This document shows positions 3,484 to 48,435 of a stretch of 64,000 nucleotides of DNA, piece after piece. The notes beneath the pieces were generated by a model, which made no database searches, was not told where the DNA came from, and saw only the letters and a program-made list of their open reading frames with translations. The translations under genes were made by a program, and so were the position numbers. Position 1 is the first letter of the stretch. Every line of letters starts with the position of its first letter. This stretch comes from an uncultured delta proteobacterium (lineage in GTDB: Bacteria; Desulfobacterota; RBG-13-43-22), in contig CAWBOS010000012.1 of NCBI GenBank assembly GCA_963790475.1, forward strand, positions 1,344,001 to 1,408,000, written 5' to 3'.

Positions 3484-3503
3484 AAAAAACCTGAAATAAA
3501 AGC

Positions 3504-3534
3504 AGGCTATAGGCTATGGGCTATAGGCAATAGG
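3504..3534. repeat. Heptamer tandem repeat (GGCTATA/GGCAATA), inverted relative to 3951-3970
   Basis: aggctataggctatgggctataggcaatagg; reverse-complement units ccctatagcccattgcccc lie on the other side of the four-helix-bundle gene. Confidence 0.75.
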
Positions 3535-3562
3535 TTAAAAACAATAAGAAAAACTTTACAGA

Positions 3563-3934: not shown

Positions 3935-3952
3935 CAGTATCTTCCTCTTCCC

Positions 3953-5650: not shown

Positions 5651-5680
5651 GCTCTGGTAATTAAAATGAAGGAGACATCG

Positions 5681-12948: not shown

Positions 12949-12983
12949 AAAACCTCCTTCTTTCAACTTTTCAGGAATAAGGA

Positions 12984-13577
12984 TCATGATTTGGGAGTAT
13001 CAACGGATCCGCGAACCGCATCCAACCTGGCTTGCATGGCCCCGGTGGGGCAAACCGTGACACAAGAACCACAAGCCACACAGTCTTCTGATGTTTTACC
13101 AAAAGGTGTTCCAATAACCTTGTGGACCCCTCGGCCGATGGTGGTGATGGCCGATACACCCACCACTTCCCGACAGACCCGGACACATAACCCGCAAACC
13201 ATGCACTGCTCTTTAGGATTCTTGATTGTAAAACGGGAAGAAGTTACTCCATATTCGGCAGCCAGTGCCTGGATCTCTTTGCTGGCCGGACATTCGGCCA
13301 AGAGCATTTCCAATACCCAACGGCGGACATTTTTTACCCGATCACTGTCCGTTAACACCACCATCCCTTCTTTTACCGGATACATGCAGGAAATGACCAC
13401 CTTGGACCAATTCCCTTCCACTACTTCGACTACACATAATCGACAGCCGCCACTGGGCTCTACAGATTCATGATAACAGAGTGTGGGGATGTGTATCCCA
13501 TGTTCTCTGGCAGCGTCCAGAACGGTCCATTCGGGAAGAGCTTCCACTTCCTGTTCATTAATTTTAAACTTGAGCAT
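12984..13577 (-). CDS. NuoG-N/HoxU-like 2Fe-2S/4Fe-4S subunit
   Basis: IPTLC, GGCRLCVVE, CMVCGLCVRVC, CVACGSCVTVCP; no catalytic domain. Confidence 0.88.
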   Translation of the reverse strand: MLKFKINEQEVEALPEWTVLDAAREHGIHIPTLCYHESVEPSGGCRLCVVEVVEGNWSKVVISCMYPVKEGMVVLTDSDRVKNVRRWVLEMLLAECPASKEIQALAAEYGVTSSRFTIKNPKEQCMVCGLCVRVCREVVGVSAITTIGRGVHKVIGTPFGKTSEDCVACGSCVTVCPTGAMQARLDAVRGSVDTPKS

Positions 13578-13616
13578 ATTTCAAACCTCCTCTATTATAA
13601 AAGCCTGCCGATGGGA

Positions 13617-15479
13617 TCAAAAGACCTGCACGGCTTCAAATTTACAGGAATCCATACAAACACCGCAACGGATACATTTTTCGGCTTCGATCTGATGGGG
13701 TTTTTTCCTTTCACCGCTGATACATTTTTGGGGACAATTCCGGGCGCAAAGCATACAGCCGGTGCATTTTTCGGGATCGATTTGAAAGGTAATCAAATCC
13801 TTACATACACCAGCCGGACATTTTTTGTCGACAATATGGGAAACATATTCATCGCGAAAATACCGGATGGTGGTTAGAACCGGATTAGGAGCACTTCCTC
13901 CTAAGGCACATAAAGAACCGTCTTGAATGGCTTTGGCCAGACTTTCCAATTCATCGATATCCTCTAGACATCCCTCACCCCTGGAAAATCTTTCTAAAAA
14001 TTCAAGCATCCCTTTTAATCCCAATCGGCAGGGGAGACATTTGCCACAGGATTCATCTTCTAAAAACTTTAGAAAGTAACGGGCGATATCGACCACGCAA
14101 TCCTTATCGTCCATGACGATCATCCCCCCCGAGCCCATCATGGAACCAACTTTTGTTAGAGAATCAAAATCGACGGCCACATCTTTTAAGGAGTAAGGTA
14201 TGCATCCTCCCGATGGTCCCCCTGTTTGGACGGCTTTAAATTGATCCTTGCCTGGAATTCCTCCTCCGATATCTTCAACAATTCTTGAAAGGGGGACGCC
14301 CATGGGAACTTCGATTAAACCTACGTTTTTAACTTTCCCTACAAGTGAAAAGGCTTTTGTTCCTGTGCTGCTTGATGGTCCTATTTTGGAATACCACTCG
14401 CCGCCCTTGTCAATAATTACCGGAACATTGGACCAAGTTTCCACATTATTCAACACGGTGGGCCGATTCCATAATCCCCTTTCAACCGATCTTATATATT
14501 TAGCCCGAGGTTCCCCGGCCCTACCTTCAATAGAGGTGAACAGGGCTGTAGATTCACCGCAGACAAAGGCCCCGGCCCCACGGTTTATTTGAAGGTCAAA
14601 GTCAAAATCAGTTCCTAAAATATTCTTCCCCAACAGGCCTAAACTCCTGGCCTGATCTATGGCCCTAGCCAAGTTTTTAATCGCAATAGGATATTCGGCT
14701 CGGACATAGAGAAATCCTTGATTCGCCCCTATAGCGTATGCCCCTATCAGCATACCTTCTATAACGGCATGAGGGTCCCCCTCCATGATCGCCCGATCCA
14801 TAAAAGCTCCAGGGTCTCCCTCGTCTCCATTGCAAACCACATAGGCTGCCCCAGGGTTTGTTTTAAGAGCGTTTATTGCGGAACGCCATTTACGGCCGGT
14901 TGGAAACCCGGCACCTCCCCGCCCGCGTAATCCGGAGATCTCCATTTCTTTAATGACCTGGTCCGGGGTCATACCGGTTAAAGCCTTGGCAGCAGCCTGA
15001 TAGGCCCCGTTAATCAAGGCATCTTCTAATGATAACGGATCGATCAACCCCAAATTTCTGGTGGCGATCTTCTGCTGCATTTTATAAAAGGGAATGGAAG
15101 CCGAATCTTTGAACGTTGTGCCGTTTTCGCTATACAAAAGTCTTTCAATAACTTCGCCCTTAATAAGGGTTCGTTCAACAATTTCTGCAGCATCCTCCGG
15201 TTTCACATTTATATAGAAAAGATCCGCGGGGCTTATGGTTAACAAAGGACCTACCTTGCAAAAACCGTGACATCCCGTTTCTTTCGTCACGGGTTCAATC
15301 TTAATTTCCTGCCCCTTCGCTTTACAGGCTTTTTTAAGAGCGGCCACAACCTTATCCGCCCCTTGGGCGAGGCAGCCGGGGCCTAAGCAAACCCTTAATA
15401 CCGGCTGGTTTAGATCTAAATTGGCGATGGTTTGGTCTTTCAATGACTTGAGTTGTTCAATGTTTTCTACTTTATCCAT
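13617..15479 (-). CDS. nuoF: NuoF/HydB-type NAD(H)-binding flavoprotein
   Basis: GLRGRGGAGFPTG, NGDEGDPGAFMDR, GAFVCGE, ESCGKC, HIVDKKCPAGVC, C-terminal 2x4Fe-4S. Confidence 0.92.
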   Translation of the reverse strand: MDKVENIEQLKSLKDQTIANLDLNQPVLRVCLGPGCLAQGADKVVAALKKACKAKGQEIKIEPVTKETGCHGFCKVGPLLTISPADLFYINVKPEDAAEIVERTLIKGEVIERLLYSENGTTFKDSASIPFYKMQQKIATRNLGLIDPLSLEDALINGAYQAAAKALTGMTPDQVIKEMEISGLRGRGGAGFPTGRKWRSAINALKTNPGAAYVVCNGDEGDPGAFMDRAIMEGDPHAVIEGMLIGAYAIGANQGFLYVRAEYPIAIKNLARAIDQARSLGLLGKNILGTDFDFDLQINRGAGAFVCGESTALFTSIEGRAGEPRAKYIRSVERGLWNRPTVLNNVETWSNVPVIIDKGGEWYSKIGPSSSTGTKAFSLVGKVKNVGLIEVPMGVPLSRIVEDIGGGIPGKDQFKAVQTGGPSGGCIPYSLKDVAVDFDSLTKVGSMMGSGGMIVMDDKDCVVDIARYFLKFLEDESCGKCLPCRLGLKGMLEFLERFSRGEGCLEDIDELESLAKAIQDGSLCALGGSAPNPVLTTIRYFRDEYVSHIVDKKCPAGVCKDLITFQIDPEKCTGCMLCARNCPQKCISGERKKPHQIEAEKCIRCGVCMDSCKFEAVQVF

Positions 15480-15503
15480 TTTTTTCTCCTGTTAGGGGGC
15501 ATT

Positions 15504-15962
15504 CTATTCAAATTTCTTCAAATACCTTCTGACCGCATTTTGGGTGGCTCCCCCCAAATAATCGTCATCAACCATTACGACCGGAGCCAAGGCGCAGGCT
15601 CCCAGACAATTGACCGTTTCCAATGTGAACTTCAGGTCCGCGGTGGTGTGTCCTCGATCCACTCCCATATCTCTCTCTAAGCCTTCGGCAATACGCTCTC
15701 CTCCTTTTAAATGACAGGCTGTCCCGAGGCAAACCCTAATTTCATGCTCCCCTTTTGGTTCAAGGCTAAAAGATTTGTAAAAAGTGGCTACAGCATAGGC
15801 TTGGGTCAAGGGTACGCCTACATGGTCACAAACAAGGGTCATAGCTTCAGGGGAGATATAATTATAAGCAGCCTGGATGTCCTGCAGGAGAAAAATTAAT
15901 GATTCGGCCTTCCCCGGATGGCGTTCAATAATGTCATCAATATCTACATGTTCTTTGATCAC
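15504..15962 (-). CDS. nuoE: NuoE/HydC-type 2Fe-2S subunit
   Basis: VCLGTACHLKG, NCLGACALAP; GTG start with RBS GGAGG. Confidence 0.9.
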   Translation of the reverse strand: MIKEHVDIDDIIERHPGKAESLIFLLQDIQAAYNYISPEAMTLVCDHVGVPLTQAYAVATFYKSFSLEPKGEHEIRVCLGTACHLKGGERIAEGLERDMGVDRGHTTADLKFTLETVNCLGACALAPVVMVDDDYLGGATQNAVRRYLKKFE

Positions 15963-15991: not shown

Positions 15992-17398
15992 GAGCCTTTT
16001 GCAAAACTTATAAAAACTGCATGATGAAATATATCAGCAGGCGGTTATCCCAGTCGATTTAGAAATTTTGGGTCTTTCTTAACGACGATAGTCAGATTTG
16101 AGACTTTGGTAACAATTTTCAGGCATAGTTCTCCTCCTGACCTGAACTTTTCACCCCGTTCTTTGAAAATTTACTCAGGAAGCCAACTTTATCAACTGAT
16201 CCGCAAAGAGCGCCAGGACGCCAAACATGAGATGGAGATTGACTTTCAAGGCTCCTCGGACCATGACATTCTTGGCACCGAACTCTTCTTTTAACCGGCT
16301 ATTGAACCGTTCTGATGCTGTCCTTCCATTAAATCTTCTGGCCTCGTGGGGAGCCATAGGGATCACATCCTTACCGCGGAAGTTCTTGTCGATAATGGGC
16401 ACATGTCCCAGAGCTCTGCTGATTGCATAGATAGATCCAGCGTCATAAGCGGCATCCATCAAATCATAAAGATAATCCACCTTGGAACTAGTCATCTTCA
16501 TTAACGGTATAGCGACCTGGCTGTCATGAAGCGATGCTGCGGTCAAGACGACACTCACCGGCAATCCGCAATCATTAACATCGGCATGGAGTTTATACCC
16601 GACCCAGGTCTCTTTGTACCCTTTGGAGTTCTTCTTGGTCCCTACGTCGCAGTAAACCGGCAATTCTTTTAAGGCCTCTTCAACTGATTGCTCTCGTTGC
16701 CTGGTCAAGCGTTTGTCTTCCTTGGAATCACGGAGTTCTCCCTTGACTGGACGTCCTCTCTTCTTCGGCGCAGGCTTTTCTTTTACAGGCTTCTTAGTCG
16801 GCTTTTCCCGACCTTCTATGGCCGTTGCGTCTCGGGATATATGACCAACCAGTTCCGGCTTTAAACAACGTTCCACCAGGGCTTCGTGAACTTTTTCGCC
16901 AAGCCCCCCTTCGGCAAACTCCGCAAAGGCCCTGGAAAAAGTGGCCTCAGAGGGAATGTCGGATACCTTTTCGAACCCGCAGATGCGTCTTACATTAGAC
17001 GTCGTTTTCAAATGTTCAATGGTTGATCTGGTGAAGGAATGGTTATAGACCGTCTTGGCCACAAAAGCCCGCGCTATCGCTTGGCGCTCAAGGATCTTCC
17101 TCCCCATCCACTGATTTAAAGAACTCCGGGGAACATATCTTTCAACCTCAACCAGTTCCAATATCGTCACCAGCCGTTCCTCTTTTTCAGTCAAAGGCTG
17201 TTCCCAACATTCTTCTAAATCGGAAAATAAACCTTGTTGCAATCTACCCCTTAACCATGATACTTTTTTCCAGAGCTTCATCGGTGTCTCCTGTGTTTTT
17301 TTGTGTTCTTTCTAAACATCATCTTAACACAGAACCACCGCTGAGGCTCACTCTTTATGCTTGTCTATTCCCTAAAAATAGACTTTTGCAAGAGGCTC
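15992..17398 (-). mobile_element. Intact insertion sequence (IS5/IS1182-like), 1407 bp
   Basis: Terminal inverted repeats GAGCCTTTTGCAAAACT / GAGCCTCTTGCAAAAGT; 4-bp direct repeat AATA at 15988-15991 and 17399-17402. Confidence 0.9.
16175..17281 (-). CDS. DDE transposase
   Basis: SRDATAI, GYKLH, LMDAAYD, RTASERFNSRLK; lies inside the inverted repeats. Confidence 0.92.
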   Translation of the reverse strand: MKLWKKVSWLRGRLQQGLFSDLEECWEQPLTEKEERLVTILELVEVERYVPRSSLNQWMGRKILERQAIARAFVAKTVYNHSFTRSTIEHLKTTSNVRRICGFEKVSDIPSEATFSRAFAEFAEGGLGEKVHEALVERCLKPELVGHISRDATAIEGREKPTKKPVKEKPAPKKRGRPVKGELRDSKEDKRLTRQREQSVEEALKELPVYCDVGTKKNSKGYKETWVGYKLHADVNDCGLPVSVVLTAASLHDSQVAIPLMKMTSSKVDYLYDLMDAAYDAGSIYAISRALGHVPIIDKNFRGKDVIPMAPHEARRFNGRTASERFNSRLKEEFGAKNVMVRGALKVNLHLMFGVLALFADQLIKLAS

Positions 17399-36797: not shown

Positions 36798-37238
36798 CTA
36801 AACTTCCTTTCGAGTCCTTTTGATAAAACCTTCAATAGCTTGACGCAGTGCGTCGCGGGCCAGAATGGCGCAATGCTGATGATCAGCCGGAAACACCGGC
36901 AGACTCTTGGCAATCTCTTTTTCATCAATATCCCAGGCTTCTTCCAACTCTTTCCCTTTGGCCAGGGCCGCGGCAATCGAGGCGCAGGCCCGGCTGACGG
37001 CACAGCCATTGACTTGAAATCGGGATTCAATAATCTTATTCCCTTCAACCCTTAAAGAGATCTCCATGGTATCACCGCAGGGACCGGTTACTTTTCCCAC
37101 ACTGTCCGGGTGATCCAAAATCCCTTCGTTATGAGGACCTAGCCAGAATTGGACAACCGGCCGGCATGAATCTTTTGTTGAATTGTCTTCTTGTGCCGCT
37201 CCAGGATGGGAAGAAAACCGGCTCGTCGCTATTGACAT
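36798..37238 (-). CDS. NifU/IscU-like Fe-S scaffold
   Basis: TGPCGDTM, GCAVSRACAS, HQHCAIL. Confidence 0.85.
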   Translation of the reverse strand: MSIATSRFSSHPGAAQEDNSTKDSCRPVVQFWLGPHNEGILDHPDSVGKVTGPCGDTMEISLRVEGNKIIESRFQVNGCAVSRACASIAAALAKGKELEEAWDIDEKEIAKSLPVFPADHQHCAILARDALRQAIEGFIKRTRKEV

Positions 37239-37259
37239 TTTTTTGGTTCCTTAGTTAAT

Positions 37260-38136
37260 TTATTCCTTGAAAAATTTTTCTTGAACTCTATCCCAAATCT
37301 TTTCGATTTCTCCCCCCAGGCCGCTCCCGTTCATTTCCGGAATGGTTTTTCCCTGGATCATGGCCTCAGTTACCACCGGGTCATAAGGGAGACGCCCGGC
37401 CAATCCAAGTCCTCTTTCTCGGCAATAGGTTTCAATTCGGTCGGTCATTTCCTGGTTCAGGTCATATTTGTTGATCAGGACCATTCCCGGGATATTGAAG
37501 TGACCGGCCAGATCGAGCACCCGGTTCAGATCATGCAGTCCGGAGAGAGTCGGTTCAGTGACGATCAAAACCCCATCCGCACCGGTGAGCGAGGAAATGA
37601 CCGGACAGCCAATACCCGGGGGGCCATCCACTAAAATCAAAGGCAGTCCTTTGGCCTCGGCTATTTCCTGGGCTTTGCCGCGAATCAGGGCTACTAGTAA
37701 TCCTGAATTTTCCTGTCCTGCACCCAACTGGGCATGGACCATGGGCCCGAAACGCGTTTCGGAAACAAACCATTCGCCGCATTGCGCTAAAGGGAAATCA
37801 ATGGCCCCGAAAGAACAAAAACGGACACACACGCCGCAGCCTTCGCAGGAGATCGGGTCTACCTGAAAGTCTTCGCTGATGGCTTCAAAACGGCACACTT
37901 CCCGACATCGACCACAATCGGTGCATAGTTCGGGGTGGACGACTGCCTTTCGTCCCCCCATGAACGCTTCCCTGCTTTGGACCTTGGGGGCAGAGCAACA
38001 AATGCAGATCCGGAGCGTCGACATCACAATCAACAAGGATTTTATTTGGGACTAAGGCGGCCAAGGCACCCACCAGGCTGGTTTTCCCGGTGCCACCTTT
38101 ACCGCTTAACACACATAATTCTTTTGTTTTACTCAT
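37260..38136 (-). CDS. MinD-like P-loop ATPase with ferredoxin insert; frameshift near 37988
   Basis: SGKGGTGKT/DCDVDAPDL joins CTDCGRC, CEGCGVC, DGPPGIGCPV if one base of a homopolymer run is removed. Confidence 0.8.
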
Positions 38137-38184
38137 AAGGTCTTTTTTGTTTAAGTATGCTGTTAATACAACTATTCTTATATC

Positions 38185-38258
38185 CCTCCCCACTTCCCTT
38201 TTTCAAAGGGAGGAGAAAATCCTCCCCCTTTGGGAAAGGGGGATTGAAAGGGATTTTG
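38185..38258. repeat. Palindromic intergenic repeat (CCCTTT..AAAGGG type)
   Basis: Two nested hairpins, ccctttttcaaaggg and cccctttgggaaagggg. Confidence 0.55.
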
Positions 38259-38271
38259 GGTTATATCCGTT

Positions 38272-39123
38272 TTATGATTTTTCTATCTGTCCCTTAATTT
38301 CCAAATAAAGTTTCTGAAATTGATCCCTTAACTCCGGTCGTATTTCAACAAGCGATTGTCCTTTGGCATAACCTTCGGCAATCCGGCGCTCAAAAGGTAT
38401 CTCCATCAGTAAAGGGATCCCCTGCGATTGCAGATAGGTCTGGACCTGTTTGTCCCCGATATCAGCCCGATTCAGGATCACGCCGCAGGGAATATTCAGA
38501 GTTCCCAGAGACGCTACGGCCAGCTTCAAGTCACATAGCCCGAAAGGGGTGGGTTCGGTCACCAGGATGGTGTAATCCGAGCCTTTGACGGTCTGAATGA
38601 CCGGACAGGAGGTTCCCGGCGGGGCATCCAGGATGGCCAGAGCGTCATTTTTTATACGTTTTTTAACCTCCCGGATCAAAGGGGGGGACATGGGTTCCCC
38701 GACGCGTAACCGGCCTTGGACAAAATGAACAGGTCCGGCCCAGCCTTCTTCTATTTCTCCCAATTCTTTCATGTCCGGTAGCAAGGCCTTTGGCTCACAG
38801 ACCAGAAAACACCCTCCACAGGCATGGCACATTTCAGGGAAGGTAAGGATCGTTTCTTTCCCTAACACCAGGATGGCCTTGAATTGGCAGAGCTGGGAAC
38901 AAGCCCGGCAATAGGTGCATTTTTTTTCATCGACCCTCGGGACCTGGAGATAAATCGTCTCTTTTTTTTCCCATCGGGTCTTCATGAAAATATGGCCGTT
39001 GGGGGCCTCCACATCACAATCCAGGAGTTGGACCGGTTCCTTTACAGACAAGGCCAGGGCTACGGCCACACTGGTCTTGCCTGTTCCTCCTTTGCCGCTG
39101 GCGACACTAATGATCACAGACAT
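38272..39123 (-). CDS. MinD-like P-loop ATPase with ferredoxin insert
   Basis: SGKGGTGKT, DCDVEAPN, CTYCRAC, CHACGGC, DAPPGTSCP. Confidence 0.88.
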   Translation of the reverse strand: MSVIISVASGKGGTGKTSVAVALALSVKEPVQLLDCDVEAPNGHIFMKTRWEKKETIYLQVPRVDEKKCTYCRACSQLCQFKAILVLGKETILTFPEMCHACGGCFLVCEPKALLPDMKELGEIEEGWAGPVHFVQGRLRVGEPMSPPLIREVKKRIKNDALAILDAPPGTSCPVIQTVKGSDYTILVTEPTPFGLCDLKLAVASLGTLNIPCGVILNRADIGDKQVQTYLQSQGIPLLMEIPFERRIAEGYAKGQSLVEIRPELRDQFQKLYLEIKGQIEKS

Positions 39124-40354
39124 TATCTCCGGTAATCAGGGTTTGATTCACATAATGGGCAATCAATTCTTCCGGACCCAGTTGAGGGGCTCCGGTCAAC
39201 ACCTTGATCCCCCGTTCATTAAAGAGGCTGACCGCCCTTTGGCCCATGCCCCCGGCGATAATCAGGTCAACCCCCTTTTCTCCCAGCCAACGGGGAAGGA
39301 GACCTGGTTCATGGGGAGGAGGGGTAATCATAACTTTTTGGATAATGTTTTTTCCTTGCAAATCAATGAGGGCAAATTGTTCGCAATGACCAAAGTGATT
39401 ACAAAGCATCCCCTCGGCCATGGGGATGGCGATCTTTACACTGTCAGACGTTGTATTGATAGAATTCATTATAGGTAAGACCTCCGTTATGGGTTGTAGG
39501 ACTTTTATTTGACTTTGGTTGGCGCTGGTTATTATTTTTTCAATAATTCCATCCAGGGCCTCTTTGACCGCAGGTGAAGGATTATGGAAGAGATAGGCCT
39601 CTCCCCGGTCTCCCATTTCCATCAGGCGGATATCAAAAGGAATGCTTCCCAAGAAAGGGACCTTCATGGAGACGGCTGTTCGTTTTCCCCCGTCTTTTTT
39701 AAAGATGGCCGATTCCTGACCGCAGTGGGGGCAGATGTATCCGCTCATGTTTTCCACCAATCCCATAATGGGCATATCGACCTGACGACAAAAATTGATG
39801 GACTTGCGCACGTCGGACAGGGAGATTTCCTGAGGCGTGGTGACGATGACCGCCTGGGCATCGGGTATGGTCTGGGCTACGGTCAGGGGTTCATCGCCGG
39901 TCCCCGGGGGTGAATCAATAATCAGGAAATCCAGGTCTCCCCAGATCACATCGGCTATAAATTGCCGGATGACCCCGATCTTCAGAGGACCCCGCCAGAT
40001 GGTCGGGGAATCCTTGTCAGGCATCAGCACTTCAATGGAAATCACCTTCAAATGATCATTGACGGGAATGGGAAAAATCCCATCTCTTTGTTGAAGGGGG
40101 GTCTGCTGCATAAGGCCGAGCATTCTTGGGATGCTCGGCCCATGCAGGTCCACATCCATAAGGCCAATCTTATAGCCTTTTAAAGATAATCCGGCGGCCA
40201 GGTTTACGGCCAGGCTGCTTTTCCCGACGCCTCCCTTGCCACTCATGACCAATAATTTGTGTTTAATGCGGGATAATGATTTAGCTATAGAGGCATCCTC
40301 CGCCCTCTGAGATTCATTCCCTGCATTAGAACCGTGTGCACAACTGCTGCTCAT
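39107..40354 (-). CDS. mrp: Mrp/NBP35 Fe-S carrier ATPase fused to a NifB/NifX domain (MrpORP-like)
   Basis: GKGGVGKS, WRGP, DSPPGTGD, ENMSGYICPHC, then HFGHCEQF...GDNVCDH. Confidence 0.9.
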   Translation of the reverse strand: MSSSCAHGSNAGNESQRAEDASIAKSLSRIKHKLLVMSGKGGVGKSSLAVNLAAGLSLKGYKIGLMDVDLHGPSIPRMLGLMQQTPLQQRDGIFPIPVNDHLKVISIEVLMPDKDSPTIWRGPLKIGVIRQFIADVIWGDLDFLIIDSPPGTGDEPLTVAQTIPDAQAVIVTTPQEISLSDVRKSINFCRQVDMPIMGLVENMSGYICPHCGQESAIFKKDGGKRTAVSMKVPFLGSIPFDIRLMEMGDRGEAYLFHNPSPAVKEALDGIIEKIITSANQSQIKVLQPITEVLPIMNSINTTSDSVKIAIPMAEGMLCNHFGHCEQFALIDLQGKNIIQKVMITPPPHEPGLLPRWLGEKGVDLIIAGGMGQRAVSLFNERGIKVLTGAPQLGPEELIAHYVNQTLITGDNVCDH

Positions 40355-40502
40355 AACTGAAACTCCTTTCAATTTTTCTTAGTGATAGATTTTTTTGAAT
40401 TATCATGTTTGGTTGAGTCCCACCCAGGGCGGAGTGAGAGGTGGCCCCTCCATGAGCGGGACTCATCCGGCGTTTGCCGGAAGGATATTTCTTTCTTTAA
40501 AG

Positions 40503-40709
40503 CTATCCCCGAACCATGGTGGTGCCGCATTTGGAACACGCTATGGTGTTGCAGGGCACTCCCCGGGCATGGGGGCTTTTATTGCCGCATTTGGGACAAA
40601 TACAATTTCCACCAGCACCCATGCCGGCACCTCCCCCCATTCCTCGTCCTGATCCGAGGCCTCCCCCAGAACCTTTTCCGGCCGGGCCGGTACCATCTCT
40701 TCTTGGCAT
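40503..40709 (-). CDS. Small Gly-rich Cys-cluster protein
   Basis: MPRRDGTGP, CICPKC..HARGVPC..CSKCG; RBS AGGAGG. Confidence 0.75.
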   Translation of the reverse strand: MPRRDGTGPAGKGSGGGLGSGRGMGGGAGMGAGGNCICPKCGNKSPHARGVPCNTIACSKCGTTMVRG

Positions 40710-40783
40710 AATTCCTCCTGTCTTCTATGATTCTTTAATGTTTTTTTCTTTTTTAATTCCACAATCCGAAATCCGAAATTTTA

Positions 40784-41146
40784 TTATCCCCAGTGCCCTT
40801 CGACATTCGGGGCATCGGCGAAATTGATTTTTCCTTGTTTATATTGATCGACTGCTTCTTTGATTTTTCCGGAAATTCCTATTCCCACATTCACTCCTGC
40901 GGCCTGGAGTACCTTGAAGGCCTTTGGACCGCAGTTACCGGTCAAAACTGTTTTTGCCCCATGTTCCACGACCGTTTGAGCGGCCTGAATCCCGGCGCCC
41001 TGGGGTAACTGCAGATTCTGCTTGTTTTCAATGATCTCCACCTTCATTGTTTCCGGATCGACCAATAAGAAAAATCCGGCCCGTCCGAAACGAGGATCGA
41101 TTTCGGAATCCAGCGTATTTCCTTTGGAACTGATGGCTATTTTCAT
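40784..41146 (-). CDS. NifB/NifX family protein (Orange protein-like)
   Basis: DPRFGRA, GAGIQAAQ, TGNCGPKAF. Confidence 0.88.
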   Translation of the reverse strand: MKIAISSKGNTLDSEIDPRFGRAGFFLLVDPETMKVEIIENKQNLQLPQGAGIQAAQTVVEHGAKTVLTGNCGPKAFKVLQAAGVNVGIGISGKIKEAVDQYKQGKINFADAPNVEGHWG

Positions 41147-41520
41147 GGTTTAGTTAATCCTTTTCTTCGACAAGTTTTTCCCCTCTGCCTTCCTTTTCCT
41201 CCCCGGCAGCAGGGAAGGTTCAATTTTCCACTTAAGTATTCTTTAATGATGGTATCCACTTCCCCATAAAGGGGGTAGGCCACCTGAATTCCAAAACGAT
41301 TCAATCCGTTTATGTCTTCAAGGCGAATACCGCCGCAGATCAATTGCCTTATGCCCAATTGTCTCAAATAAATTATTTTTTCATCCGGCCCCCAGTGGCT
41401 GATATCCAACTCTCTTTTATCCACCAGTTGGTTTTTCTCAATTTCCAGGACCAATAATTTCCTGGCACAATCCAGCCGTGGAGAGATTCGATCTAAAAAA
41501 ACCGGGATAGCCACTTTCAT
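41143..41520 (-). CDS. NifB/NifX family protein
   Basis: MKVAIP, RISPRLD, LICGGI. Confidence 0.82.
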   Translation of the reverse strand: MKVAIPVFLDRISPRLDCARKLLVLEIEKNQLVDKRELDISHWGPDEKIIYLRQLGIRQLICGGIRLEDINGLNRFGIQVAYPLYGEVDTIIKEYLSGKLNLPCCRGGKGRQRGKTCRRKGLTKP

Positions 41521-41546
41521 TATATTTACTCCTCTCCTATTATTAC

Positions 41547-41563
41547 TTCAAGAAGAGTGCCAA
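41547..41563 (-). promoter_or_regulatory. Putative sigma54 promoter of the orp-like operon
   Basis: TTGGCACTCTTCTTGAA: perfect -24 box, variant -12 box (GA instead of GC). Confidence 0.55.
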
Positions 41564-41629
41564 GGGACGGGAAGACTGGAGATGTGATCAATTGGAAGGG
41601 ACCATGGAAAATGTCGAATGCCAATTTAG

Positions 41630-41706
41630 GTCATTCCGGCGAAAGCCGGAATCCAGTAATTTTAATTAGTTGTGTTTTCCTGGACCCCGGCTTTCGCCGG
41701 GGTGAC
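41630..41706. repeat. REP-like palindromic element
   Basis: GTCATTCCGGCGAAAGCCGGAATCC plus an inverted copy; related elements at about 45170 and 61360. Confidence 0.8.
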
Positions 41707-41784
41707 GGTTCTTCATCCCAATTATTGATATGATTACCTTTGACTTATTGGGTAGCGATTAAGGACTTTGAAATTCAATAGACC

Positions 41785-41829
41785 TATTGCAAAATGCAAT
41801 AACTTTATTGCAAAACTGCAATTCGCAAT
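41785..41829. promoter_or_regulatory. Putative activator binding sites
   Basis: Palindrome TATTGCA-AAA-TGCAATA plus a second degenerate copy. Confidence 0.55.
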
Positions 41830-41840
41830 CAGGGGGAAAT

Positions 41841-43169
41841 TTAAGAAAGGTGTTTCAGCTTCCGCCAGAGGGTAGTGGGATGGAGGCCCAGGGCTTTGGC
41901 GGCCAGGGTGCGGTTGCCATGATATTTATCCAGAGTCTGTTGAATCAATTCCTGCTCTTGGGCCTTCAGTTTTTTTTCAAAAGGAATTTGAGAATCGCTG
42001 CTCTCGGAAGTTCCTCCTTGGATCTCCGGAGGAAGGTGAGAGAGTTGAATAGTGGACCCGTGACAAAGCACGAAGGCGTGTTCAATGATATTTTCCAATT
42101 CCCGGATATTTCCAGGATAATCATATTGCATCAAGATTTGAAGGACTTTAGGGGATACCAGGGTAATTTTTTTACCGGTTCGGAGATTGAATTTATTAAT
42201 GAAATGGTCGATCAAAATGGGAATATCTTCACGGCGTTCTTTTAATGTAGGCAGGTCGATCTGGATCACTTTGAGCCGATAATAAAGATCATCTCTGAAT
42301 GAACCTTCAAGGACCAGCCGTTTAAGATTTTTATTGGTGGCCGAGATCACTCGGGCCTTAACCGGCTTGCTGACATTGGAACCCAAAGGCTCATAGGTCT
42401 TTTCCTGAAGCACCCTTAACAATTTGGCCTGCACCGTCAGCGGAAGGTCACCTATCTCATCCAAAAACAAAGTTCCGGAATCGGCCTGGGCAAATTTCCC
42501 GGGTTTGTCTTTTTTTGCATCGGTAAAAGCCCCGCGAACATAGCCGAAGAGCTCGGATTCAAGCAGGGTTTCCGGCAGGGCGCTGCAATTGATGGCCACG
42601 AAGGGTTTTTCTTTTCGGGGACTTAAGTTGTGTATGGCCTTGGCCAGCAGTTCTTTGCCGGAACCGCTGGGTCCCTGGATGAGAACGGCGCTGTCACTTT
42701 GGGCAATGTCCGGGAGATTATTAAATATTTTCTGCAAGGCCTCACTTTTACTGATAATGTCCTTTAGGGTATATTGTTTGGTGATTTCTTTACGAAGGGC
42801 CTCGATGGGGCTTAAATCCCGGAAGGTTTCGACCCCGCCAATCATCCTGTCTTGACCGTCTTTCAGAACGGCGGTTGTTACACTGATGGGGATAACCTTC
42901 CCCTGGGCATTAAGAATATTAACCGGCAAGTCCACTACAGTCTTGCCGGTTTTCAGGGTTCGAGCCAGGGCACAGGATTCCTGACATATATCAGCCTGAA
43001 ATATTTCAAAACATTTTTTGCCGATCGCTTCTTCCCTGGAAAATCCGGTTATACTTTCTGCTGCCTGATTGAAGGAGGTGATCACCCGGTCTTTGTTGAT
43101 AGTAAAGACCCCTTCAGTAATACTGTCTAAGATGATTCTTAAAAAGGCAGGAGATGACTTCATTGTCAC
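41841..43169 (-). CDS. PAS sigma54-dependent activator (OrpR-like)
   Basis: GPSGSGKE, GAFTDA, LFLDEIG, YPGNIREL, HTH; Cys-containing PAS (CFE..ICQESC). Confidence 0.9.
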   Translation of the reverse strand: MTMKSSPAFLRIILDSITEGVFTINKDRVITSFNQAAESITGFSREEAIGKKCFEIFQADICQESCALARTLKTGKTVVDLPVNILNAQGKVIPISVTTAVLKDGQDRMIGGVETFRDLSPIEALRKEITKQYTLKDIISKSEALQKIFNNLPDIAQSDSAVLIQGPSGSGKELLAKAIHNLSPRKEKPFVAINCSALPETLLESELFGYVRGAFTDAKKDKPGKFAQADSGTLFLDEIGDLPLTVQAKLLRVLQEKTYEPLGSNVSKPVKARVISATNKNLKRLVLEGSFRDDLYYRLKVIQIDLPTLKERREDIPILIDHFINKFNLRTGKKITLVSPKVLQILMQYDYPGNIRELENIIEHAFVLCHGSTIQLSHLPPEIQGGTSESSDSQIPFEKKLKAQEQELIQQTLDKYHGNRTLAAKALGLHPTTLWRKLKHLS

Positions 43170-43362
43170 ATTATTATCGTTTTGGCGACCTTTTTCAAGT
43201 TCTTATTTTATCAAAAAAAACTAAAGTTGACTTATAATTTAATTGCGATAAACCCAGTTCATGGTATATATAAAAAAATAAACGTTAGATCTCTCCAGTT
43301 GTATCTGGAGGGGAGGCAGAACGGGGAAATCGCTCGATTGCTACCCATATTTAGGGGGATTT

Positions 43363-45057
43363 GTGTTTTTCAAAATAAGTCTTTATAGCGCATTGATTCT
43401 TTTCGGGATCGGGACCTGTATCAAGGTCATGATGTGGTTTCGAAAGAGGACTGGCGACCCGTCCGAAAGAATATCCGCGGGTAAACGCTTTTCCGAGGCA
43501 GTTAAAGGGATTTTCTCCGCGTTGTTCAGTCTGAAATTGTTTCGGTTGATCAAGGTCTGGTTCATGGAAATCCTGGTTCAAAAGCAGATCGGGCGGGAAG
43601 GATTTGTACGCTGGTTCATGCATTTTTGCATCGCTTACGGCTTTATCTCCTTGCTTTTAATGCATGCCCTGGATCGTTTCGTCAGCCAAAAACTGTTCCC
43701 CGGATACTATAGTCCGGAGTTGTCAGCCCTAAATCCAATCAATCCTTTCCTTTTTCTTAGGAACCTCTTCGGGGCCATGATGCTGGTAGGCTTGGCTATT
43801 GCCGCTTATCGCCGGATTTTTAATCGGACCATGCGACTGACTACTCGGTGGGTCGACATCTATGCTTTAATTATTCTGACTTTGATAGCTCTTTCGGGAT
43901 TTTTCCTGGAGGCCGCCAAAATTGTTTCCCACGAACGGTATGAAGAAATGGTTACTGGTTTTTCTTCCGTTTCCGATGAACAGGAGGCTGCGGCCTTGAG
44001 GGCCTATTGGGCCAAAGAATATGCTGTAGTGTTCCCTAATGCTCCCCTGATGGACGCTGCATCCATAGCCAAAGGACAAGAAGTTCATGTCAATAATTGT
44101 GCCTCCTGTCATTCCCGGCCGACCGCGGCCTTTGTGTCTTTTGGTCTGGCCAAAACGATCAGTCCTTTAGCCCTTACCTTGAGTCAGAAAAGCATCAGAG
44201 AGTCTCTCTTATATTTCCATTTCCTAGTCTGTTTTGTGGGCCTGGCCTTATTGCCTTTCACCAAATTTTTTCACATCCTGGTCAGTCCCCTGTCGCTTCT
44301 GATCAACGGGGTGATGGATCGGACTAAGGCCTCTCCCGCCAATATCGCCACGGTTCGGGCCATTGAACTGGACGCTTGTATGCACTGCGCCACCTGCAGT
44401 ATCCATTGTTCCGTGGGACCTATATACCAGCAAATCTCCAATATCAATATTTTTCCTTCTGAAAAATTATCGGCTTTAAACTCTTTGGTCTCAAAAAATG
44501 GCGCATCCCTTTCAGTTCTTCCGACAATAAGGTTGGGAGATTCAATCTGCACCCGGTGCTATCGCTGCACTGCCGTATGCCCGGCGGGTATTGTCCTTCA
44601 AGATCAGTGGTTCCATCTGGATAAAGATTTGACCAGTCTGGGAAGCCCTGAACCTTTCATTCAGTTACGAGACGCTGTTAAATCAAAATTTGATTCAGAT
44701 CGAAAAAAAGTCGTTATCCCCTTATCGACTTCAGGTAAGAAATTTATGCAGGGAGTGGGCCTTTCCAGCCAGGGCAGTACCTTTAATAATTGTTTTACCT
44801 GTATGACCTGTTCCAATGCCTGTCCCGTGGTGGTCAATTTTCAATATCCGAGAGAAAGTCTGGGATTGATGCCCCATCAGATCATGTACAGTCTTAAGTT
44901 TGGTCTGCAGGATAACGTCTTGGGAGCCGGGATGGTCTGGGACTGTCTGGGCTGTTATAATTGCCAGCAGAACTGCCCCCAGGGGGTCAGGGTGACGGAT
45001 ATCCTTTTTGAACTTAAAAATATAGCCTTTCAACGTGCCGGGGGTGAGAGGATTTAG
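43363..45057 (+). CDS. Membrane cytochrome b + heme c + 4x4Fe-4S (HdrC-like) fusion, copy 1
   Basis: NarI-like His pairs, CASCH motif in a loop, four CxxCxxCxxxC motifs, WDCLGCYNCQQNCP. Confidence 0.85.
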   Translation: MFFKISLYSALILFGIGTCIKVMMWFRKRTGDPSERISAGKRFSEAVKGIFSALFSLKLFRLIKVWFMEILVQKQIGREGFVRWFMHFCIAYGFISLLLMHALDRFVSQKLFPGYYSPELSALNPINPFLFLRNLFGAMMLVGLAIAAYRRIFNRTMRLTTRWVDIYALIILTLIALSGFFLEAAKIVSHERYEEMVTGFSSVSDEQEAAALRAYWAKEYAVVFPNAPLMDAASIAKGQEVHVNNCASCHSRPTAAFVSFGLAKTISPLALTLSQKSIRESLLYFHFLVCFVGLALLPFTKFFHILVSPLSLLINGVMDRTKASPANIATVRAIELDACMHCATCSIHCSVGPIYQQISNINIFPSEKLSALNSLVSKNGASLSVLPTIRLGDSICTRCYRCTAVCPAGIVLQDQWFHLDKDLTSLGSPEPFIQLRDAVKSKFDSDRKKVVIPLSTSGKKFMQGVGLSSQGSTFNNCFTCMTCSNACPVVVNFQYPRESLGLMPHQIMYSLKFGLQDNVLGAGMVWDCLGCYNCQQNCPQGVRVTDILFELKNIAFQRAGGERI

Positions 45058-45130
45058 TCGAAACATATGCTCGGTGTTCAGCGTTCACGTTGATTGAAAG
45101 TATTAGGCCTCCTCTTTATTCGATCTGGAA

Positions 45131-45296
45131 TGATGGACCCGCAAAGAGCCGTCGAAAATTCAATTTCGTCATTCTGGCGAATCCCGGATTATGTCCGGGG
45201 CAGGCTCTAGAATCCGGCAAATTTATCCCGCTGTTGGCGGGACTGGACCCCGGCTTTCGGCGGGGTGAAAGCGTTAGTGAATTTTTCCCAAGCTGT
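45131..45296. repeat. REP/MITE-like palindromic element
   Basis: gtcattctggcgaa...ctggaccccggctttcggcggggtga, related to 41630. Confidence 0.7.
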
Positions 45297-45330
45297 TAGA
45301 TTATCTGTGCGACCTTAGAGGATATCGATT

Positions 45331-46182
45331 ATGAAAATGTTATTGTTCCCCGGGTGCAAAGTCCCTTACTATGTCCCCCAATATGAAATCTCCAGCCGTT
45401 TGGTCCTTAATACATTCGGTGTCGAAATTGAAGATATCGAATTCAATTGCTGCGGATATCCCATCCGCTTTCTGGACTTCAAAGCTTTCCTCTTTTCCTC
45501 AGCCCGTAATATCGCCCTGGCCGGTGAAAAAGGGTTATCGATATTGTGTCTTTGCAAGTGTTGTTACGGGACCCTGCGATACGCGGATCTTTTATTGAAG
45601 CAACAGGTCGATCTTAGGAATGAAATCAATAGATTGTTGAAGGATGAAGGTCTCCGTTATCCGGAGCAGGTGGAAATAAAACATCTGCTAAACGTCTTTT
45701 ATGACGATCTCGGTCCGGAAAATATTCAGAAAAAAATTATCCGACCCTTTAAGTCCCTCAAGGTTGCCGCTCATTATGGATGTCATATTTTGCGTCCACA
45801 CGATGTGGTAAAATTTGATAGTCCGACGAATCCGACCAAATTTGAGAAACTCATCGAGGTGACCGGAGCGAAGAGTGTTGACTGGTCCCTAAGACTCCAA
45901 TGCTGCGGAGATCCCCTGAACGGGAAAAACGATACCTTGGCCCGGGAACTGGGGGAAAAAAAGATGAAATCCGCCGCACAGGCCGGGGCCGATTTGATTT
46001 GTGTCGGCTGTACTCATTGCCAGATGCAGTTCGATAAGATCGGAACTGCGATACGGGAACAGGATAAGGCCGAAACCGTGCCCCCGGCCCTTCTCTACCC
46101 TCAATTGCTGGGCCTGGGCTTGGGATTGGAGGCTGCGGCCCTGGGAATTGATCAATCCAGGTTGGATATTGCTGACCTGTAG
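45331..46182 (+). CDS. hdrB: Heterodisulfide reductase subunit B-like
   Basis: FPGC, FNCCG, HYGCH, QCCG, CTHCQMQFD. Confidence 0.88.
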   Translation: MKMLLFPGCKVPYYVPQYEISSRLVLNTFGVEIEDIEFNCCGYPIRFLDFKAFLFSSARNIALAGEKGLSILCLCKCCYGTLRYADLLLKQQVDLRNEINRLLKDEGLRYPEQVEIKHLLNVFYDDLGPENIQKKIIRPFKSLKVAAHYGCHILRPHDVVKFDSPTNPTKFEKLIEVTGAKSVDWSLRLQCCGDPLNGKNDTLARELGEKKMKSAAQAGADLICVGCTHCQMQFDKIGTAIREQDKAETVPPALLYPQLLGLGLGLEAAALGIDQSRLDIADL

Positions 46183-46534: not shown

Positions 46535-48229
46535 ATGCTCTTCTCAATCAGTTTATACACCGCCCTGATCCTTTGTGGAGCAGGGTTGATTTATAAAGTT
46601 CTCTCCTGGTTCCGATATCCGATAAACAATCATGCCCAACGGATTACAACAGCCGGAAGGGTTTCGGCCGCAGCCAAGGGGGTGATTTCCAGTCTTTTCA
46701 GTATCAAAATTCTTTCCATGATCAAAATTTTTTTCCTGGACGTACTTCTTCTGGCACGGCTCCGGAGAGAAAGCTTCCTTCGGTGGTTAATTCACTTGTG
46801 TATTTTCGGCGGTTTCATGTTCTTACTGCTGATGCATGCCTTGGACCAATATGTGACCAAGAAGCTTTTCAGTGAATATACTTCAACCTTGAATCCTTTT
46901 CTCTTTTTACGAAATCTTTTTGGGGCCTTGGTTCTGTTGGGGCTGGTCTTGGCTTTATGGCGGCGAATATCCGACCGGGTCATGCGTTTGACTACCCGGG
47001 GTGGGGATATCTATGCCTTGCTTCTTCTTTTCTTAATTATTCTTTCGGGTTTTTTATTGGAGGCTGTTAAAATCGTTTCCTATCAGCGATATGAAGAAAT
47101 GGTTTCCGAATATTCCTCCATATCCGATGAGAAAGAGGCCAAAGCTTTAAAAGCCTATTGGACTAAGGAATTTGCCGTAGTTTTTCCTCAGACCCCTTCT
47201 TTGGATTCCAGCACCCTGAAAAAAGGTCGGGAAGTCCATATCCTCAATTGTGCCTCCTGTCATTCAAAGCCTTCATCCGCTTTTGTATCTTATGGCTTGG
47301 CTAAGGGGATGAGTTCCATGGCTCTTGTTTTAAGCCGGAAAGATATCAGGGATTTACTATGGTATTTCCATTTCTTGGCTTCTTTTATCGGTCTGGCTTT
47401 ATTGCCTTTCACCAAATTTTTTCATATTTTTACCAGTCCCTTGGTGCTTTTGATTAACGGGGTAATGGACCGTGCCAAAGCCCTGCCGGCCAACATCGCA
47501 ACTATTCGGGCCATTGAGCTGGATGCCTGCACCAATTGCGCAATTTGCACCCAGCATTGTGCGGTCAGGCCGATCCTTCGGCACATCCCGAACTTAACTA
47601 TTTTGTCTTCAGAAAAATTGGGCGCTTTTAAATCCGTAGCTTTTCGAAAAAAAAATTTCCTCAAAAAACTCTCCCATTTTCAGGAAGGGGCTTCCATTTG
47701 TACCGGATGTTATCGAGGCACTATATACTGCCCGGTCAGCATTGACCTCCAGAATATGTGGTTTAATCTGAGAGAGAACTTGGACAGCCTGGGATGCCCA
47801 GAACTCTTTACCCGGACAAGAAATGCTTTCAAAATTAAATTTGAGGCCGAGAGTGGGAAAACCGTTTTTCCATTAACCAGTTCCGAAAAAAATTTCAAAA
47901 AAGAGATGGGTCTATCCTTCCAGGGCAGTACCTTTAATGCCTGTTTTACCTGCATGACCTGTTCTAATTCCTGTCCGGTGGTATTCAATTGTAAAAAACC
48001 TATGGAAGAATTGGGGTTACTGCCTCACCAAATCATGTATAGTTTGAAATTCGGCATTCAGGATAGCATCCTCGGGGCTGGAATGGTCTGGGACTGTCTG
48101 GGTTGTTATAATTGTCAGGAGAACTGTCCGCAAGGGGTCCGGGTGACGGATATACTTTTTGAACTGAAAAATTTCGCTTTTCAAAAGGCCAGGCATGAAG
48201 AGGACCAATCGAAAGTAACGGCTTCGTAA
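46535..48229 (+). CDS. Membrane cytochrome b + heme c + HdrC-like fusion, copy 2
   Basis: Colinear paralog of 43363-45057; one cluster motif altered (CTGCYRGTIYCP). Confidence 0.85.
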   Translation: MLFSISLYTALILCGAGLIYKVLSWFRYPINNHAQRITTAGRVSAAAKGVISSLFSIKILSMIKIFFLDVLLLARLRRESFLRWLIHLCIFGGFMFLLLMHALDQYVTKKLFSEYTSTLNPFLFLRNLFGALVLLGLVLALWRRISDRVMRLTTRGGDIYALLLLFLIILSGFLLEAVKIVSYQRYEEMVSEYSSISDEKEAKALKAYWTKEFAVVFPQTPSLDSSTLKKGREVHILNCASCHSKPSSAFVSYGLAKGMSSMALVLSRKDIRDLLWYFHFLASFIGLALLPFTKFFHIFTSPLVLLINGVMDRAKALPANIATIRAIELDACTNCAICTQHCAVRPILRHIPNLTILSSEKLGAFKSVAFRKKNFLKKLSHFQEGASICTGCYRGTIYCPVSIDLQNMWFNLRENLDSLGCPELFTRTRNAFKIKFEAESGKTVFPLTSSEKNFKKEMGLSFQGSTFNACFTCMTCSNSCPVVFNCKKPMEELGLLPHQIMYSLKFGIQDSILGAGMVWDCLGCYNCQENCPQGVRVTDILFELKNFAFQKARHEEDQSKVTAS

Positions 48230-48270
48230 AAAGTCCATCTGTCCAGAGCTTCGCGGGATTGCACTGGGGC

Positions 48271-48435
48271 CAGATACAATTTGACCGGATTGGAACAAAC
48301 CTGCTTGAACAGGGGGACACCCAGGCCGTCTTGCCTTCCCTTCTTTACCCTCAATTGCTGGGCCTGGGCTTGGGACTGGAGGCAGCGGCCCTGGGAATTG
48401 ATGAAAACAAAAAGGAGTTAAAGGGTCTGTTTTAA
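48271..48435 (+). pseudogene. hdrB: C-terminal remnant of a second hdrB
   Basis: QIQFDRIG...LLYPQLLGLGLGLEAAALGID; DNA nearly identical to 46091-46152. Confidence 0.85.

Follow-up and report, generated by a model that had tools for sequence, protein, structure and literature searches.

Can one bacterial membrane protein combine two haems b, a haem c on the membrane's outer side and a row of cytoplasmic iron–sulfur (Fe–S) clusters, and what would it do together with an HdrB-like partner? This question is raised by two co-directional genes in a 64,000-nt stretch of DNA (hereinafter, the window) from an uncultured delta proteobacterium (assembly GCA_963790475.1, contig CAWBOS010000012.1, positions 1,344,001 to 1,408,000). 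Gene 1 (43363–45057, forward strand) is an open reading frame (ORF) of 564 amino acids (aa) encoding a cytochrome b/c–FeS fusion; its GTG start is backed by homologues that align from residue 1. Gene 2 (45331–46182, forward strand) encodes an HdrB-like protein of 283 aa with two CCG domains. An earlier note on this DNA had taken the pair for an HdrA-independent membrane heterodisulfide reductase. It pointed to NarI-type His pairs, a CASCH motif in a loop of about 90 aa between transmembrane (TM) helices, two dicluster domains, the last of them HdrC-like, and an hdrB gene after gene 1. All of these features were recovered in our analysis, and the haem c motif is invariant in every set of homologues compared.

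Gene 1 matches the Pfam family PF02665, Nitrate_red_gam, with 35.7 bits at a cut-off of 22.9. The NCBIfam equivalog of NarI, TIGR00351, gives 20.2, far below its cut-off of 105.55, so gene 1 is not the nitrate reductase gamma subunit proper. Hydropathy indicates five strong TM segments at residues 3–25, 81–103, 128–150, 165–188 and 281–305, as well as an amphipathic stretch at residues 50–72. Judging by charge counts, loops 26–80 (12 Lys and Arg, 5 Asp and Glu) and 151–164 (4 and 0) are predicted to face the cytoplasm, and loops 104–127 (2 and 2) and 189–280 (8 and 10) the periplasm. As the Fe–S motifs come after TM5 and an export signal is absent from HdrB, the tail of gene 1 should be cytoplasmic, which would place the 92-aa loop preceding TM5 on the outer face. 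The protein is predicted to consist of an N-out, five-helix membrane domain of the NarI/HdrE type and a cytoplasmic Fe–S tail. Its TM4–TM5 loop (residues 189–280; 43927–44202, forward strand) is predicted to be periplasmic and not cytoplasmic, both by the charge bias and by the position of the tail. The N-out, C-in five-helix topology of EMO and NarI, as given in the available part of the EMO study (10.64898/2026.08.18.745454), matches that predicted for gene 1. His87 and His101 on TM2 and His286 and His304 on TM5 reproduce the NarI arrangement, with a predicted proximal and a predicted distal bis-His haem, and the TM4–TM5 loop emerges beside the predicted distal haem.

The loop contains the motif CASCH (C246–H250; 44098–44112, forward strand), a putative haem c attachment motif, as well as Met196 (43948–43950), which is invariant, and Trp216. 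A word-indexed search revealed 750 relatives among 8000 scored candidates; among the matches listed, CxxCH stands at the same position in 120 of 120 close homologues. An exhaustive search of representatives of 50%-identity clusters gave 141 matches at E ≤ 1e-30. In an alignment of 59 sequences (57 cluster representatives of 520–620 aa and the two copies from the window), C246, C249, H250, M196, H286 and H304 are kept in all 59, and H87 and H101 at 97–98%. A broader alignment of 88 rows, reaching down to 29% identity (A1), has CxxCH in 88 of 88; its invariant columns include H101, M196, W216, C246, C249, H250, H286, H304 and most Fe–S cysteines. Full-length homologues translated from species genomes keep H87, H101, M196, C246, C249, H250, H286 and H304 in 67 of 67 cases each, and in the alignment of these 67 loops (A2) M196, C246, C249 and H250 are likewise invariant. 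The residues between the two cysteines of the motif vary in all homologue sets (AS, AQ, AE, LD, MG and others). The exact C-x-x-C-H spacing with variable middle residues is the signature of haem c attachment; such variation would be expected of an attachment site for haem c, but not of a motif that arose by chance or has a structural role. At the similarity levels of these homologue sets, every family member seen has CxxCH, and the loop can therefore be regarded as a defining feature of the gene 1 family.

Several Fer4 dicluster families match gene 1 (e.g., PF13183 at 65.8 bits), and four CxxCxxCxxxC motifs are located at residues 339–349, 396–406, 477–487 and 528–538. The first two make up a 2×[4Fe-4S] dicluster domain (44365–44592, forward strand; C339/342/345/349 and C396/399/402/406), covered by PF12838 over residues 339–410. 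The last two (C477/480/483/487 and C528/531/534/538) belong to a second 2×[4Fe-4S] domain (44770–45042, forward strand). Of these 16 cysteines, 15 occur in all 67 full-length homologues from species genomes, and C402 is replaced by Gly in three sequences of one subclade. The HdrC profile TIGR03290 gives 60.9 bits over residues 475–558, where its cut-off is 160, and the last domain matches the PDB HdrC profile at E 1.3e-20. With the score below the cut-off and with the motifs and the fold present, the domain is HdrC-like and not an HdrC equivalog. The best NCBIfam match of the whole protein, QmoC (NF038018, 68.1 bits, cut-off 300), is likewise confined to residues 469–558, and the matches of TmcC (18.5 bits) and HmcF (19.3 bits) are weak. 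On the strength of these profiles, the C-terminal 90 residues of gene 1, which resemble HdrC and the N-terminal part of QmoC, are a relative, and not an orthologue, of the methanogen and Qmo proteins.

A three-dimensional model of gene 1 built with AlphaFold2 from alignment A1 has a predicted local distance difference test (pLDDT) score of 90.8 and a predicted template modelling (pTM) score of 0.85. In an exhaustive structural alignment, the best match is EtfD of M. smegmatis (9ojn_A), with Z 24.1 over 330 aligned residues of the model region 1–429. HdrC structures 7bkb_C and 5odc_C match region 448–562 (Z 13.6 and 13.2, respectively), and NarI 1q16_C matches region 1–326 (Z 10.7). Foldseek agrees, placing 9ojn at E 4.4e-6. 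The alignment with EtfD extends to model residue 429, and the first dicluster domain is the counterpart of the EtfD dicluster domain. According to the model, gene 1 is an EtfD/EMO-like membrane and dicluster core with an added HdrC-like domain.

Gene 2 matches PF02754 (CCG) with 73.6 bits in two stretches and a solved archaeal HdrB, 8rvu_b, at E 3.3e-50. Its cysteine positions were aligned to the solved HdrB, and their conservation was examined in 78 neighbouring HdrB proteins; all ten cluster cysteines (C9, 40, 41, 75, 78, 151, 191, 192, 227 and 230) are present in gene 2. The pairing of the two genes recurs in relatives: of the 74 related loci whose downstream DNA spans 900 nt or more, 72 have hdrB directly downstream, and both loci without an adjacent hdrB have fragmentary main ORFs. 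Moreover, three relatives of 711–716 aa (P0179, P0189 and P0229) unite the TM domain with CxxCH, one dicluster domain and two CCG domains in a single chain, and these fusions speak for gene 1 and hdrB being functionally linked. A search of 401 genomes with P0179 gave no clear full-length fused locus and mainly returned the two-gene family, over residues 1–420.

The domains, the conserved motifs, the pairing of the genes and the kinship of the structures are shown by the data above; from them we infer how haem is attached, the Met ligand, the topology, a quinone site, what the substrate is and which way electrons flow. Genes 1 and 2 would most likely form a two-subunit transmembrane electron wire. 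H87 and H304 would hold the proximal haem b, and H101 and H286 the distal one; haem c would be bound covalently at C246 and C249, with H250 as an axial ligand and M196 as the likely sixth ligand, and would be located beside the distal haem b. TM5 would lead into the two dicluster domains with their four cubane [4Fe-4S] sites, the HdrC-like last domain would dock HdrB, and HdrB would carry two non-cubane clusters. The chain would then start at haem c and continue through the distal haem b, the proximal haem b and the four cubane clusters to the two non-cubane clusters of HdrB. At the outer face, electrons would be exchanged close to the distal haem, at a menaquinol site, and/or with periplasmic c-type cytochromes via haem c. 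In a job resembling that of DsrMK, HdrDE and TmcBC, menaquinol or a reduced periplasmic cytochrome c would be oxidised outside, a disulfide or trisulfide carrier such as DsrC would be reduced inside, and the inward electron flow would add to the proton-motive force. For the clade of the window, we consider the chances of this role to be about even. It is favoured because the pair has no adjacent dehydrogenase, HdrB has its full set of cysteines, and both dsrA and dsrC occur in the genome. The 6.3-Mb genome encodes DsrA (615 bits), a DsrB-like protein, DsrC (129 bits) and two proteins of the cytochrome c3 family, so the host is a sulfite or sulfate reducer. The pair can be called only a putative heterodisulfide reductase, the name used in the earlier note; gene 2 scores below the HdrB equivalog cut-off.

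The same structure could work in the reverse direction, and the distribution of the family bears on this. A scan of one genome per species yielded at least 557 relatives of gene 1, of which 80 were kept as loci. Almost all of them come from Thermodesulfobacteriota/"Deltaproteobacteria", namely Desulfobacterales, Desulfarculaceae (including the cultured Desulfocarbo indianensis), Syntrophobacterales and Syntrophaceae, with several metagenome-assembled genomes (MAGs) of Spirochaetota/Leptospirales in addition. In an even sample of the phylum, matches at E ≤ 1e-60 were found in 70 of 401 genomes and 38 of 254 genera; the taxonomic family of the window genome had a match in 13 of 13 genomes. On a quick maximum-likelihood tree, with neighbours determined by ORF clustering and family scans, three gene contexts track the branching: HdrA-linked, GlpAB-linked, and without an adjacent dehydrogenase. 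The HdrA-linked clade comprises 31 rows, with a support of 99 in the Shimodaira–Hasegawa-like approximate likelihood ratio test (SH-aLRT), and in 24 of them an HdrA-like gene of about 930–1050 aa follows hdrB. These neighbours score 836–936 bits as HdrA2 and are often followed by genes encoding MvhD, MetV (DUF5981), MetF, NuoF-like proteins or formate dehydrogenase. MvhD occurs in 11, MetV in 8 and methylene-tetrahydrofolate reductase (MTHFR) in 10 of the loci, the 80 related ones and the window being counted together. The series hdrA, mvhD, metV and metF comes after the module in L046, L061, L062, L069, L076, L035 and others, which suggests a membrane-anchored complex of methylene-tetrahydrofolate reductase and Hdr in Desulfobacterota. 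The GlpAB-linked clade has 11 rows. The order glpA-glpB, cytochrome b/c–FeS gene, hdrB is found in four MAGs of Spirochaetota/Leptospirales (L064, L071, L080 and L081) and in six Desulfobacterota loci, i.e., in two phyla; in L064, GlpA scores 580.7 bits (cut-off 552.8) and GlpB 567.1 (cut-off 345). In these ten loci, the module takes the place of GlpC. The clade of the window itself (7 rows, support 100) has no dehydrogenase adjacent to the pair, and the neighbour maps of the window and its closest relatives revealed neither hdrA nor glpAB beside it. The three contexts point to reuse of the module as the membrane end-piece of various cytoplasmic redox enzymes.

Several of these data weigh against an inward-flowing disulfide reductase. 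An HdrA-like gene stands directly after the module in 28 of the 59 related loci whose downstream DNA covers 4 kb or more, and glpA-glpB precede it directly in ten loci, all within the one GlpAB-linked clade (SH-aLRT 96). The profile scores point the same way: the HdrB equivalog TIGR03288 gives gene 2 only 217.7 bits at a cut-off of 345.15, and the HdrC domain of gene 1 also falls below its equivalog cut-off. By these measures, gene 2 is an HdrB-like relative and not an orthologue of methanogen HdrB. The HdrA- and GlpAB-linked clades imply that HdrB does not have to be catalytically active as a heterodisulfide reductase; with the GlpAB and HdrA-MvhD-MetVF links, a relay function of HdrB and an outward flow are more plausible in these sister clades. 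As for the pair in the window, it could serve as a membrane anchor and exit wire for an unlinked cytoplasmic dehydrogenase, its HdrB clusters acting as a relay as in EMO/EtfD and GlpC. Electrons would pass from the cytoplasm to menaquinone and/or, via haem c, to periplasmic cytochromes, possibly drawing on the proton-motive force. EtfD is the closest solved structure, and the HdrB-like clusters of EMO pass electrons on and cleave no disulfide, according to the available part of the EMO study (10.64898/2026.08.18.745454); in the part of the Desulfobacterium autotrophicum genome paper at hand, the HdrF genes located by glpAB or etfAB are read likewise (PMC2702500). On the other side, no dehydrogenase partner adjoins the pair in the clade of the window, and HdrB of the window has ten of ten cysteines, whereas SaEMO has lost one and has its substrate site blocked (10.64898/2026.08.18.745454, available part); the latter difference is a weak discriminator. 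Moreover, glpA-glpB of this genome (contig C15, about 280.5–285.1 kb, L006) is followed by its own soluble pair, an HdrC-like protein of 192 aa and an HdrB-like protein of 288 aa, which by sequence is a split GlpC without a membrane domain. An exit role is the main alternative for the pair in the window, and we rate it as less likely than the inward one. The narrower proposal that the module anchors GlpAB in this very genome is unlikely in view of that soluble pair. "HdrA-independent", the term used in the earlier note, suits the window and its closest relatives, which have no adjacent hdrA; it does not extend to the family, with an HdrA-like gene after hdrB in nearly half of the loci just counted.

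A different objection concerns the haem c itself. The motif may bind no covalent haem c: H250, together with M196, could hold a third, non-covalent distal haem similar to the twin haem of the Syntrophus EMO, or the two Cys could make up a disulfide, redox-active or structural, or a metal site on the periplasmic side. SaEMO has an extra stacked distal haem b without CxxCH (10.64898/2026.08.18.745454, available part). The structural comparisons of the loop count for this reading in that they gave no significant match to a cytochrome c-like fold. The loop-only model (pLDDT 85.3) has no significant structural neighbour in VIA-align, its best match being TFIIB (Z 4.0), and a Foldseek search with it gave nothing at E ≤ 0.001. 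Atlas look-alikes of the loop are limited to the family's own NarI-annotated clusters, with scores of 0.75–0.84. There are weak matches of the model to the cytochrome c domains of the cbb3 oxidase subunit CcoP (Z 3.6 and 3.4) and to cytochrome c555 (Z 3.1), and the A1 profile weakly matches the haem subunit of flavocytochrome c, 3vrd_A (E 0.0074), at profile positions 203–247, around the motif. These structural and profile echoes of cytochrome c are hints only; neither "cytochrome c fold" nor "new fold" was retained as a description of the loop, as VIA-align and Foldseek gave no significant match. The maturation genes pose a further difficulty. The only ccsB-ccsA (System II) locus of the assembly (contig C15, about 87.8–90.0 kb) is split over alternating frames, and a second PF01578 gene, next to hemA and a gene resembling sirohaem synthase, probably does not encode a cytochrome c synthase. 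However, ccsB is a single open frame of 455–502 aa in 11 of the 12 congeneric genomes sampled. A real loss of ccsBA would disable the other cytochromes c of the genome, which makes a local assembly error likelier. Against a non-covalent site stand also the invariance of CxxCH in all the homologue sets, 120 of 120 among the matches listed included, with free middle residues as in the haem c signature, and the predicted periplasmic position of the loop, where attachment occurs. We therefore regard the non-covalent reading as unlikely and keep a putative covalently bound haem c in the scheme.

The flanks of the pair are common to the window and its nearest relatives (L011, L012, L013 and L043). 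Upstream of gene 1, a divergent gene on the reverse strand (41841–43169) encodes a PAS/sigma-54 activator and belongs to an orp-like cluster (36801–43169, reverse strand), which also encodes a NifU-like protein, two MinD-like Fe–S ATPases and a pair of small NifX-like proteins along with MrpORP (544 bits). We presume that this cluster resembles the orange-protein (ORP) locus of Desulfovibrio vulgaris with its sigma-54 regulator. The downstream flank contains metW-metX and a gene for O-acetylhomoserine sulfhydrylase. Control of gene 1 by the activator was considered and dropped: a consensus scan revealed no −24/−12 site in 43170–43362. Matches to this consensus in the whole window are at chance level (40 found, 46.8 expected), and the sole good sigma-54-like site (41548–41562, reverse strand, one mismatch) lies ahead of the orp-like operon. 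Gene 1 and five relatives have in common, in their upstream regions, a sigma-70-like −35 element and an extended −10 element. With a sigma-70-like promoter in place of a sigma-54 site, the synteny of the activator and gene 1 can be read as inherited.

Further Hdr-type modules are located in the window at 2635–6970 and 10518–15962. They include a set of HdrB-like, four-helix-bundle and HdrC-like genes on the reverse strand; on the forward strand (4964–6970), genes for a TmcC/HmcE-like cytochrome b and for a CCG protein resembling TmcB/HmcF; and a gene for an HdrA/MvhD-like fusion (708 aa) with NuoF-like and NuoE-like genes. A transposase gene of the IS5/IS1182 family (16178–17281, reverse strand) separates the NuoE-like gene from a sigma-54 regulator.

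The second copy of gene 1 is located downstream of gene 2 (46535–48229, forward strand). This paralogue is also 564 aa long, is 61% identical to gene 1 and matches PF02665 with 35.0 bits (cut-off 22.9). It keeps CASCH, the Met, the four His and 15 of the 16 Fe–S cysteines; C402, the third Cys of the second cluster motif (CxxCYRG..YCP), is Gly. The same substitution is found in L014 and L016; being spread across a subclade, it is not a sign of decay, and the subclade may hold a 3Fe-type or differently liganded cluster. On the tree, the paralogue falls into a subclade other than that of gene 1, and it is 87% identical to the protein of L014; by this phylogeny, it is not a recent tandem duplicate of gene 1. 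In L014, the orthologue of the paralogue is followed by an intact hdrB and then by genes for a response regulator and a histidine kinase. In the window, only the last 54–59 codons or so of the corresponding hdrB are left (48253–48432, forward strand), as indicated by tblastn (78% identity over 54 aa), by blastn, with blocks of 89% and 91% identity flanking a gap, and by translation; about 770 bp are gone compared with the intact gene of L014.

The spacer between gene 1 and hdrB is unusual as well. It is 273 bp long (45058–45330), whereas in the gene maps of relatives the two genes abut, overlap or are up to about 150 nt apart. Blastn against the genome showed that the spacer contains short dispersed repeat pieces of 40–59 nt, which recur at eight other genomic sites, and this suggests a small dispersed repeat or an insertion resembling a miniature inverted-repeat transposable element (MITE). 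Decay or inactivity of the locus in this strain, at which the spacer, the reduced hdrB of the paralogue and the frame breaks in ccsBA might hint, is very improbable, because both 564-aa frames and hdrB are open, every invariant residue of gene 1 is intact, C402G is common to L014 and L016, the sigma-70-like promoter with its extended −10 element appears conserved, and the broken ccsBA would more likely be an assembly error, since its loss would affect all cytochromes c of the genome.

When comparing the pair with described systems, its closest counterparts are EMO/EtfD and HdrF. EMO/EtfD, an ETF:menaquinone oxidoreductase, shares with genes 1 and 2 a NarI-like cytochrome b of five helices in N-out orientation, a dicluster domain in the cytoplasm and a module of the HdrB-like type (CCG/NCB). 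HdrF, named in the 2009 genome paper of D. autotrophicum, consists of TM, HdrC and HdrB parts and is encoded beside glpAB or etfAB; HdrF1/F1' of this bacterium are two genes linked to glpAB, and a c-haem in HdrF is not mentioned in the part of the text at hand (PMC2702500). The GlpAB-linked clade of the present family resembles the glpAB-linked HdrF1/F1' as described there. Since HdrF and EMO/EtfD are already known, the architecture without the c-haem is not new. There are several differences. In the window, HdrB is a separate polypeptide. Gene 1 has a second, HdrC-like dicluster domain and, between TM4 and TM5, the 92-aa loop with CxxCH and Met, predicted to be periplasmic; no etfAB adjoins the genes in the window. 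Thus, the pair falls outside the definition of EMO/EtfD/HdrF as a single chain with one dicluster domain beside etfAB. EMO contains only b haems, one in MsEMO and three in SaEMO, according to the available part of the EMO study (10.64898/2026.08.18.745454).

HdrDE of Methanosarcina is similar in pairing a dihaem cytochrome b (HdrE) with a subunit on the cytoplasmic side, in which there are two cubane clusters and a pair of CCG motifs. It works as a redox loop that oxidises a quinol-type carrier and reduces a disulfide, and its HdrD corresponds to HdrC plus HdrB. The fusion points differ: in the window, the HdrE and HdrC parts are fused and HdrB is free, whereas in HdrDE, HdrE is free and HdrC and HdrB are fused. 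In addition, the protein of the window is bacterial, has an extra dicluster domain and the c-haem loop, and scores below the equivalog cut-offs.

DsrMK, TmcBC and HmcEF likewise consist of a NarI-like cytochrome b and an HdrD-like CCG protein, and their CCG proteins are thought to reduce DsrC. The Dsr, Tmc and Hmc complexes have separate cytochrome c subunits (DsrJ, TmcA and HmcA), whereas here a single putative haem c site is located within the loop of the cytochrome b. Tmc and Hmc draw electrons from periplasmic cytochromes c, as stated in the available part of the D. autotrophicum paper (PMC2702500). In QmoC, an HdrC-like dicluster domain is fused to a NarI/HdrE-like cytochrome b, as in gene 1, and works with HdrA-like flavoproteins; however, the order is reversed, the HdrC-like part being the first, and Qmo has no HdrB, c-haem loop or second dicluster domain. 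GlpC, which passes electrons from GlpAB to the membrane quinone pool, has two cubane motifs and two CCG motifs and is not known to have a cytochrome domain. The GlpC profiles give the window proteins 30–38 bits at cut-offs of about 278–280, and the pair does not lie beside glpAB. No description of a CxxCH motif in such a loop was found in the literature searched, a search that many subscription papers lie outside; among the sources covered, the accessible parts of PMC10553843, PMC5109826, PMC5947623 and 10.1101/2021.09.25.461819 do not describe it. The c-haem loop may be undescribed so far.

In methanogens, sulfate reducers, syntrophs and mycobacteria, energy conservation depends centrally on cytochromes b of the NarI/HdrE type coupled to HdrD/HdrBC-like modules, such as HdrDE, DsrMK, Tmc, Hmc, Qmo and EMO/EtfD. 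In the described systems that could be checked, the membrane subunit has b haems only; what is added in this family is an invariant motif for haem c on the predicted outer face. Tentatively, and with more doubt than confidence, we propose that the loop haem c is a built-in periplasmic port. One polypeptide with HdrB would then replace the separate cytochrome c subunits of Tmc, Hmc and Dsr and wire the periplasmic cytochrome c pool, possibly also menaquinone, to cytoplasmic HdrB. In a bolder form of the same proposal, haem c and the distal haem b would be a coupled pair gating reverse electron flow driven by the proton-motive force, like the twin haem of the Syntrophus EMO. If the haem c is real, the family would define a compact b2c-type transmembrane wire and would be a candidate membrane link for several as yet unassigned electron routes in Desulfobacterota. 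The family is common and occurs in three cytoplasmic contexts: stand-alone, with GlpAB, and with HdrA-MvhD-MetVF. In the last of these, the port would connect a flavin-based bifurcating Hdr, along with methylene-tetrahydrofolate reductase, with both membrane and periplasm, and, if true, this would bear on how the oxidation of methyl-tetrahydrofolate is coupled to energy conservation in complete-oxidising sulfate reducers.

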